This document shows positions 7,067-10,000 of a stretch of 64,000 nt of DNA, piece after piece. Made by a program: the position numbers. Within the stretch, counting starts at the first letter, position 1, and every line of letters starts with the position of its first letter. Where the stretch lies: NCBI RefSeq assembly GCF_988242995.1, contig NZ_OZ547043.1. One strand, given 5' to 3'.

Positions 7067-10000
7067 TAATGCTTTGCGGGCCGACGAGAAATGTCGGCCC
7101 GCATTATTCAGGCACTTTCGCGAATGGGTTCGATTTCATTCAGCGTATCAATTAACGGTTGCGGCTTACCAATAAGATAACCCTGCATATAATCGATCCC
7201 CAAAGAGAGCACCGCCTCGCGGATCTCTTCGTTTTCAACGTACTCTGCCACTACCCGCATTTTCTTCATTCGCGCCAGGTGGCAAATCGACGCCACTATC
7301 TGATAATCCAGACTATTTGACACAATATTGCGGATAAAACTGCCGTCAATTTTAAGCAAATCGGCATTCACATTTTTAAGCCGCGCATAGCTGGCGTAGC
7401 CGGTGCCGAAATCATCAATCGCAATCTGGCAGCCTAATTCCTGAAGATGCTGCAAGGTGATTTGCGCCTGCTTAACATTGGTCAGAGCATTACTTTCGGT
7501 GACTTCAAAAATAAGTTGCCACGCTTCAATTTGATATTTAGCCAGCAGCTGACTGACTTCAACGGGAAAACGAGCCTGACATACCGAGGTTGGCGACAGA
7601 TTAATGGCAAAACGGTGAGCGGGCATCTTCGCTCTGTTTTCAGCCATAAATTGCAGCGTATGCTCAATGACCCACATGTCGATACTCGACGATAAACCAA
7701 ATTCGTGCGCGACCGGCAAGAAGCTGTCGGGGCTGATCAGTTCATCATTCTCACCTTTCATACGCAGAAGAATTTCATGGTAGACATCGCCACGCATACC
7801 GGTAATCGGCTGGGCCATCAGGAAAAAATGGTTGTGTTCCAGTGCCTGCTGTAGCCGATTCATCATCGCGACTTTATCTTTCAATTCGCGTTGCAAATAC
7901 ATTGCCCCGCGACGCTGCATATTTTCCGGGGCGTTGGTCACGATGGAAAGCTCGGCGACCGTATTTAGCTCTCCCAGCAGTAAGTAGATATGATTCACTG
8001 GCGAGCGCACATAGCAGTAACTGACGCCAATCTGCGGTTGCATCGGCATTCCATCCCAAAAGAAACGAAATTGCTTGAGATGGCTATCCAGTGCGGTAAT
8101 GCGCTCCTGGTGCGATTCTGTATTCAGTCGCAGCGCGAGATCGTTACCCGAAAGCTGATAAACATCCTCACCCGGTTCCAGCAATGGTGACAGCCAGTGA
8201 GAAAGTTTTTGCTTGTATTGAATCCGCAGCATGATGCCATAGTTCTTAACCAGCATTTCCATGCCAGGGATGCGTAAATAACAAAGCGCAGACCAGGGGG
8301 CATCACGCAACGCGCGATTCAGGGCGCGAACATTTGGCAGATGAACTACCGGGTCCACATACGCAAGCCGCTGAATGCGTCTGACAACCGCTCTCTGACG
8401 GGTTGCCAGTACAGCCATATAATTGACAATAAAAGAGAATACCAGATAACTGGAGGAGGTTATGGTCAGCTGCGTGGTATAGCCAGGATAAATGGGAATG
8501 TAATTTTGATAGCTGTGGATGCTGATCATCAACACGACCGCCCAGAGCAGCGAAATCAGCTTATAACCATAGCGCATCGCTCCCCACATCATCAGGGGCA
8601 GCAATAATGACAAGGTATAGTTGGTGCTAAAAATTGTGCTTTTTTCATTTAACGGCATGCATAACAGCAGCAGTAAAGCACCTAATGCCAGTAGCCAGAG
8701 TGCGAACTCTTTTTTGGTGACTTTGACATCAACCTGCTGTTTTAATTGCGAATAATAACTACGTAAATAAAACGGATTTCGCACTACACGAATGATGAAG
8801 TAGCACAGCGGGACACCAATCAGATTGCCCACCAGTAAGGCCTGATAATTGATTAAGGTCCCGAGGTTAAAAGGCATGACGCCGACCAGATTTTCTCTGC
8901 TCGCCAGTAATCCTACAAACGCAGCAAACTGGAAAAGTATCAGAAACAGCGTTGCAGGAAACACAATCTGCCAGAATATACGCTGGGAAATTAAACGGGT
9001 ATCACCATGTGAAACGTTGTTACGCCGGGGAGTAAAGACCCTGTAACCGCCCCAACAGAGAATGATAATGATAATAAAATTAGCCGTTAATGAGAGCGTT
9101 TCGTAAAAACCCAGCTCTGCATATTTGCGGACAAAAATCCCTAAGGCGATCCCTGGCAATGCCGCCCAGCTGAAAAACATCATCATGCTGATCATCAGAG
9201 CCAGAGGCAGATAAAAGAGAAAAACCTCACCGGAAGAAATATGCGCGAAAGTATTAATGTGGGCGAAAATGGGCAAGATTAAAGAAGGCAGGAACAGCGG
9301 AAGCCCCCACCATTTATCACGTATTTTTATATAAGTTGCATTCAGTTTCATAGATGCTCAGCAGAATCCCCCACATCCTGAAGGAGGTGTATTCAGACAG
9401 GCATCCCACCTGACTTCGAATGATGATTATTCATCACTATAGAGAGCATTGATTCTAAGTGTCATATGAAAGTTCCAATTGATATATATCAAACAAAATA
9501 ACCCTGATTAATGAATTATTACGTTTATCATGTTAATTCATCATTATTACATCATCATTGTAAATAATTAAATTAACTTCCATAACATTAAAATATGTAT
9601 CCACTGACGCTTTTTTACATAACGAAGAATTGACCATTTTGTCCTGTTGTGCCTTAATGTAAGTACCGTCCACAGCGTGGGACATACTTCAAGGAACCTT
9701 TTGTGAGTCAGGCAACCAGTATGCGAAAACGACACCGATTTAACAGTCGCATGACCCGTATCGTACTGCTCATCAGCTTTATCTTCTTCTTTGGCCGTTT
9801 TATCTACTCGTCCGTCGGTGCATGGCAGCACCATCAGAGCAAAAAAGAAGCTCAGCAATCCACACTCTCCGTCGAATCACCGGTACAACGTTAGCGGTTA
9901 CCTTCTCCACTTTCACAGAACATAACGGCACCTCGCTGTCGGATGCTTTTGCTCTTTGGGATTATCAAAGCGGCAGATATTCTTTCATCTTAAATTTTAC

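Follow-up and report, generated by a model that had tools for sequence, protein, structure and literature searches.

Escherichia coli PdeF (YfgF) combines an EAL phosphodiesterase domain with a degenerate GGDEF-fold domain

Introduction

What lies between the membrane region and the EAL domain of a c-di-GMP phosphodiesterase when no cyclase signature can be found there, and does a variant EAL signature affect the enzyme? Both questions are raised by a gene at positions 7108..9351 (minus strand) of the window, the whole stretch of 64,000 nucleotides analysed here (contig NZ_OZ547043.1, RefSeq assembly GCF_988242995.1). The original prediction, made from the sequence, assigned to this gene a 747-aa PdeF with a long polytopic N-terminal region, a C-terminal EAL domain with the signature EIL and no GGDEF or GGEEF motif. 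It regarded this as consistent with a phosphodiesterase-only enzyme in which a degenerate cyclase-like domain has a regulatory role.

PdeF is one of 13 known E. coli c-di-GMP phosphodiesterases, and its architecture has been given as MASE1-GGDEFdeg-EAL (PMC6510439). The yfgF row in Table 1 of Spurbeck 2012 reads SGNDL / EILR / QRDD / TE / ENEEDKEQ (PMC3484386), and the GGDEF domain of YfgF has been described as catalytically inactive and the EAL domain as active (Lacey 2013, PMC3718329). Hydrolysis of c-di-GMP has been reported for both K-12 YfgF and Salmonella YfgF. According to the summary of Lacey 2010 in PMC12419081 and the account in PMC3718329, purified YfgF has phosphodiesterase activity and no cyclase activity. 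The same summary of Lacey 2010 (PMC12419081) states that the GGDEF-like domain raises phosphodiesterase activity at physiological Mg2+ and that pGpG inhibits the reaction. Papers of the Hengge group describe anaerobic induction of PdeF and its structural closeness to PdeA. The EIL motif, the SGNDL signature, the phosphodiesterase-only activity and the anaerobic FNR control of PdeF have been published knowledge since 2010-2012, and the significance of the present analysis goes little beyond a correct annotation.

Results

The locus holds one long open reading frame, which is intact, starts with ATG and encodes 747 aa. Its translation matches PdeF/YfgF of E. coli K-12 MG1655 (b2503) at 745 of 747 residues (99.7% amino acid identity), with A209V and L699R as the only substitutions, and the nucleotide sequences are 98.3% identical. 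Since 36 of the 38 nucleotide differences are synonymous, purifying selection acts on pdeF; together with the full-length reading frame this rules out a pseudogene or a truncation. A megablast search of complete E. coli genomes found pdeF in 5425 of 5426, always on the chromosome and annotated as pdeF, with a best identity of 99.6%. The closest genome, NZ_CP063153.1, also has V209 and R699, and its PdeF differs at residue 420 only. The gene order ppk-ppx-pdeF-yfgG-yfgH-yfgI-guaA is the same as in K-12, and so are the wider surroundings, with purM-purN-ppk-ppx upstream and yfgG-yfgH-yfgI-guaA-guaB downstream. The gene is nearly identical to K-12 pdeF and its synteny is conserved, which places it in the b2503 orthologue group, and the likeness extends to the FNR box, the -10 hexamer, SGNDL and EILLR. 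The locus is almost certainly the E. coli gene pdeF (yfgF), encoding the characterised inner-membrane c-di-GMP-specific phosphodiesterase with the order MASE1, degenerate GGDEF, EAL, and the identification made in the original prediction was correct.

The window strain differs from K-12 in its surroundings by an IS200C element and a sinH island near pdeF. An IS200C-type transposase ORF (169 aa, minus strand) is located at 11426-12017 between yfgI and guaA, and it is adjoined by an Rfam match to STnc490 at 11894-12017 (146 bits); the insertion is annotated in NZ_CP063153.1 and absent from K-12 MG1655. Between xseA and yfgJ, a three-gene island at 16792-28194 (minus strand) encodes a 2680-aa adhesion-domain protein, a 325-aa SinI-like protein and a 735-aa SinH-like intimin-type inverse autotransporter. 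This island is also annotated in NZ_CP063153.1 and absent from K-12, and shows that the strain belongs to a lineage other than K-12. Rfam matches to the sRNAs IS128 and ryfA were found at 46253-46867, downstream of sseA, where the small toxin timP is annotated in NZ_CP063153.1; this region is ordinary E. coli content.

Upstream of pdeF, an FNR box, TTGATATATATCAA, is present at 9479..9492 (minus strand). It is the only match to TTGAT-N4-ATCAA in the 64-kb window, where 0.09 would be expected by chance. A -10 hexamer, TAGAAT, was read at 9452-9457 on the strand of the gene. Both elements are identical to those of the class II FNR promoter of E. coli yfgF (PMC3718329), and the literature describes pdeF expression as anaerobic and FNR-dependent. 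Between pdeF and yfgG, the place corresponding to about 9533-9685 (minus strand) carries in NZ_CP063153.1 a RefSeq annotation for a 50-aa hypothetical protein, WP_000017552.1, divergent from yfgG; K-12 is without such an annotation.

The N-terminal part of PdeF is a MASE1 integral-membrane sensor domain (aa 15-320, 8392..9309, minus strand). The Pfam model PF05231 was matched over positions 1-299 of 299 with E=1.5e-70, and the first 320 aa are highly hydrophobic, with at least five windows of mean Kyte-Doolittle hydropathy of at least 1.6. Beyond residue 330 the maximum mean value is 1.08 (19-residue windows). The long polytopic region proposed for this part of the protein is thus borne out. 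A translation check located the loop motif K213-K214-E215 at 8707-8715 (minus strand), and the substitution A209V sits four residues ahead of it. In Salmonella YfgF the KKE motif, which lies in the MASE1 loop between TM5 and TM6, is functionally required: an effect of the protein on aspartate responses, independent of c-di-GMP, depends on it (PMC3718329).

The C-terminal EAL phosphodiesterase domain (aa 498-730, 7162..7860, minus strand) was matched by PF00563 with E=3.7e-71, scoring 239.7 bits where the cut-off is 31.3 and covering model positions 2-236 of 236, and PDB matches to this region reach E=1e-48. A regex scan of the whole translation found no EAL tripeptide. The only ExLxR motif was E526-I-L-L-R530 and the only DDFG stood at 646, so that the signature tripeptide is EIL (aa 526-528, 7768..7776, minus strand), as originally read, with E526 as the catalytic, metal-binding Glu. 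All ten canonical catalytic and metal-binding residues are kept (E526, R530, N584, E616, E619, D646, D647, K667, E703 and Q723). The full-length PF00563 match and the presence of ExLxR together with the N, ExxE, DD, K, E and Q residues put the domain, by its residues, in the catalytically competent EAL class. In the Salmonella YfgF orthologue, E526A abolishes phosphodiesterase activity (PMC3718329).

The middle residue of the signature varies widely. EILR is found in yoaD and yfeA, and EVLR in yahA, rtn, yhjK and c1610 (PMC3484386, Table 1); in phmmer alignments to PDB entries, RbdA, the closest solved active phosphodiesterase, has ELL and MucR has EAL. Among 27 aligned sequences of the PdeF family, the query included, 12 have EIL and 8 have EVL. 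Because this residue is variable in active phosphodiesterases and within the PdeF family, EIL is an ordinary EAL variant and no defect, and the middle residue is not catalytic. The substitution L699R sits four residues ahead of the catalytic E703. Family members have Q, S, T, A, K or R at position 699, and RbdA also has R at the equivalent residue; like 699, position 209 is highly variable. Inactivation by A209V or L699R was therefore rejected, since both positions vary, RbdA shares the R and NZ_CP063153.1 has both residues. A functional effect of the two substitutions in this allele seems unlikely from the variability of these positions.

The region between MASE1 and EAL was not recognised by single-sequence methods. 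A Pfam search of whole PdeF at E<=0.1 gave no match to PF00990, and the isolated central domain (aa ~320-497) matched nothing in Pfam at E<=10. Pfam-based pipelines would consequently describe PdeF as 'MASE1 + EAL' and leave ~170 aa between the two unexplained. NCBIfam equivalogs for GGDEF-EAL proteins (DibA, PdeR-like PRK10060 and DosP) scored far below their cut-offs in every case, with alignments that run from about residue 290-320 to 732; these alignments hint that the gap may be a GGDEF-like module. When whole PdeF was compared with the PDB using phmmer, RbdA/PA0861 (5xgb, aa 343-733, E=1e-48), MorA (4rnh, aa 322-733) and DosP (aa 306-733) were matched across both regions. The isolated central domain gave nothing significant in the same database, where the best match was the unrelated ALKBH7 at E=0.19, followed by MorA at E=0.8; the MorA alignment, itself not significant, still sets SGNDL on GGDEF. 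Searched with phmmer against 1.84 billion representative proteins, the central domain retrieved only 78 proteins (E<=1e-3), of which those of full length have 720-770 aa and share the architecture of PdeF. A word-indexed homologue search with the same query returned mostly gene fragments.

Because the kinship with GGDEF domains is beyond single-sequence methods, a family profile and a structure prediction were needed. A profile of 25 aligned central domains of the PdeF family was searched against the PDB, and all significant matches were GGDEF proteins: RbdA (7.7e-6), the DgcZ GGDEF domain (1.5e-4), full-length DgcZ/YdeH (4.5e-4), 3mtk (4.7e-4) and 6zxm (6.4e-4). An AlphaFold2 model of the central domain, built with the same 25-sequence alignment, has a mean pLDDT of 92.2 and a pTM of 0.85. 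The top 50 Foldseek matches of this model in the PDB are all GGDEF domains, with E from 9e-10 to 1.5e-6, TM scores of 0.53-0.78 and identities of 8-21%; they include PleD, WspR, DgcZ, DosC, DosP, FimX, MorA, RbdA, SiaD, YfiN and LapD. The predicted fold and the remote homology detected by the profile (E<1e-3) assign the central domain (aa 318-495, 7867..8400, minus strand) to the GGDEF fold, in a degenerate and catalytically dead form. As judged by these searches, it represents a narrow, highly diverged lineage out of reach of single-sequence HMMER comparison with ordinary GGDEF domains.

The original prediction had found no GGDEF/GGEEF motif, and a regex scan for GG[DE]EF across the 747 aa of PdeF likewise found none. 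This reading can now be refined, since alignments to RbdA, MorA and DgcZ show that SGNDL (aa 401-405, 8137..8151, minus strand) occupies the A-site position of GG[D/E]EF. In the RbdA alignment 'yqlSGNDLalrl' stands opposite 'arlGGDEFgill', and in the DgcZ profile alignment the family consensus 'vYqlpgydlllrL' stands opposite 'vYrYGGEEFiiiv'. The comparison suggested for the central domain, a Pfam scan with alignment to active cyclases, hence gives a GGDEF fold in which the GG[DE]EF motif is not intact. The equivalents of the other canonical positions were read from the RbdA alignment and residue look-ups. R360 takes the place of the first metal-binding Asp (DxD); the A-site residues K, N, D, H, D and R correspond to E365, K369, N370, I373, I377 and Q399; G402 is the sole survivor of the signature; and the inhibitory RxxD (I-site) is replaced by E392-P-G-E395. 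PdeF thus lacks what marks an active diguanylate cyclase, namely the signature, the metal-binding Asp and GTP contacts (the position of N403 included) and a PF00990 match.

These losses are shared by the family. GG[DE]EF is present in 0 of the 27 members, 20 of which keep EIL or EVL, and the GGDEF position loosely follows [PS]-G-x-[DE]-L; R360 and I/V377 are the commonest residues at their positions. Because the loss is family-wide, the degeneracy is ancient and not a lesion of this strain. Replacement of the signature, metal, GTP-contact and RxxD residues predicts that synthesis of c-di-GMP by the central domain is impossible and that canonical binding of GTP or c-di-GMP is unlikely; judged from sequence, a non-canonical mode of nucleotide binding is conceivable.

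Discussion

Together with published work, our data support a protein in which the MASE1 domain acts as membrane anchor and sensor and the EAL domain is the only catalytic module. The EAL domain would convert c-di-GMP to pGpG with Mg2+ through E526, R530, N584, E616/E619, D646/D647, K667, E703 and Q723, in a reaction subject to product inhibition, and PdeF would be made under anaerobic conditions in dependence on FNR. The central domain has kept the GGDEF fold and has lost the signature, both metal ligands, the GTP contacts and RxxD. Placed between the MASE1 sensor and the EAL domain, it probably has a structural, dimerising or relay function, and in published work it enhances phosphodiesterase activity.

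A different role is known from related proteins, since GTP activates the EAL domain through the GGDEF domain in Caulobacter PdeA (CC3396) and in P. aeruginosa RbdA. It is improbable that the degenerate domain of PdeF is an allosteric nucleotide sensor of this kind, or one that binds c-di-GMP at the I-site. RbdA (PAS-GGDEF-EAL) is the closest solved relative across GGDEF and EAL, a crystal structure of its GGDEF domain with GTP exists (5xgd), and the phosphodiesterase activity of YfgF is enhanced by its GGDEF-like domain, as Lacey 2010 is summarised. However, RbdA has an intact GGDEF motif and intact GTP contacts, whereas PdeF has R360, E365, K369, N370, I373, I377, Q399, SGNDL and EPGE at these positions, and the loss of contacts extends throughout the family. 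In addition, the reported stimulation depends on the Mg2+ concentration, and the summary describes it without GTP. The loss of nucleotide contacts besides the signature argues against a GTP-sensor model of the CC3396/RbdA type for PdeF. Since the nucleotide-contacting and RxxD residues are gone, sensing of GTP or c-di-GMP is unlikely, and the domain more plausibly has a part in structure, dimerisation or signal relay; we infer that the central domain would be a dimerisation or relay scaffold and not a GTP sensor. Of the functional part of the original prediction, the phosphodiesterase-only activity agrees with the catalytic EAL residues and with published assays. The regulatory role holds in so far as an accessory degenerate domain is present, and a role in nucleotide sensing is unlikely with the contacts gone.

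Two further readings concern catalysis itself. A bifunctional PdeF, with a cryptic diguanylate cyclase that uses a non-canonical active site, is scarcely conceivable. The GGDEF fold is present, and some phenotypes of a yfgF deletion in CFT073 were complemented by an exogenous diguanylate cyclase as well as by an exogenous phosphodiesterase, which leaves the assignment ambiguous in that assay. However, PdeF has no GG[DE]EF at any position, both metal ligands and all substrate contacts are lost, and the published biochemistry, as far as it is summarised in the sources cited above, records no diguanylate cyclase activity, which effectively refutes this reading. It is also very improbable that EIL or L699R has inactivated the EAL domain in the window strain, so that PdeF would be limited to sensing c-di-GMP or to acting through MASE1. 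The proximity of L699R to E703 and the c-di-GMP-independent function of MASE1 could be taken in its favour. Against this, the K-12 enzyme, which is biochemically active, has EIL in its wild-type form, no catalytic residue is missing, position 699 varies in the family with R in active RbdA, and the predominance of synonymous differences indicates purifying selection. The reading of PdeF as a phosphodiesterase with a single catalytic module, the EAL domain, is preferred.

The E. coli paralogue of PdeF, PdeA (YfeA), shares MASE1-GGDEFdeg-EAL, has EILR and carries the degenerate signature PGSEL. Expression of PdeA is aerobic, whereas that of PdeF is FNR-dependent and anaerobic, and YfeA does not reproduce the aspartate phenotype of YfgF. 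RbdA of P. aeruginosa (PA0861; 5xgb) is likewise a membrane-associated phosphodiesterase with a GGDEF-EAL tandem, but it has an intact GGDEF, a PAS sensor where PdeF has MASE1, and ELL as its EAL motif. DgcZ (YdeH; 3tvk/4h54) is an active E. coli cyclase with the same fold as the central domain of PdeF (Foldseek E~1e-7, TM 0.62-0.67). Identity between them is only 14-17%, and DgcZ has GGEEF and a full A-site where PdeF has SGNDL.

The central domain of the PdeF/PdeA type also has conserved features of its own, namely DPxxxLPNLR, YG, E395, [PS]G-x-[DE]-L and W432. It is conceivable, though rather doubtful, that this domain branched off the GGDEF fold as a narrow, mainly enterobacterial lineage with a new specific function, for example as a relay from MASE1 to EAL or as a surface binding a partner or ligand, and not the product of mere decay. 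If true, this would refine known biology modestly and would not amount to a new system.

Some distant relatives with MASE1-GGDEFdeg-EAL (P0066, P0067, P0071, P0072 and P0074 from the search of representative proteins) have lost EAL catalytic residues too. In these proteins EIL is replaced, for example, by AIS, QVS or EIV, and IDDFG by LDGFG, RGRFA or LSGID. Judging from these replacements, the five proteins are probably doubly degenerate and non-enzymatic.
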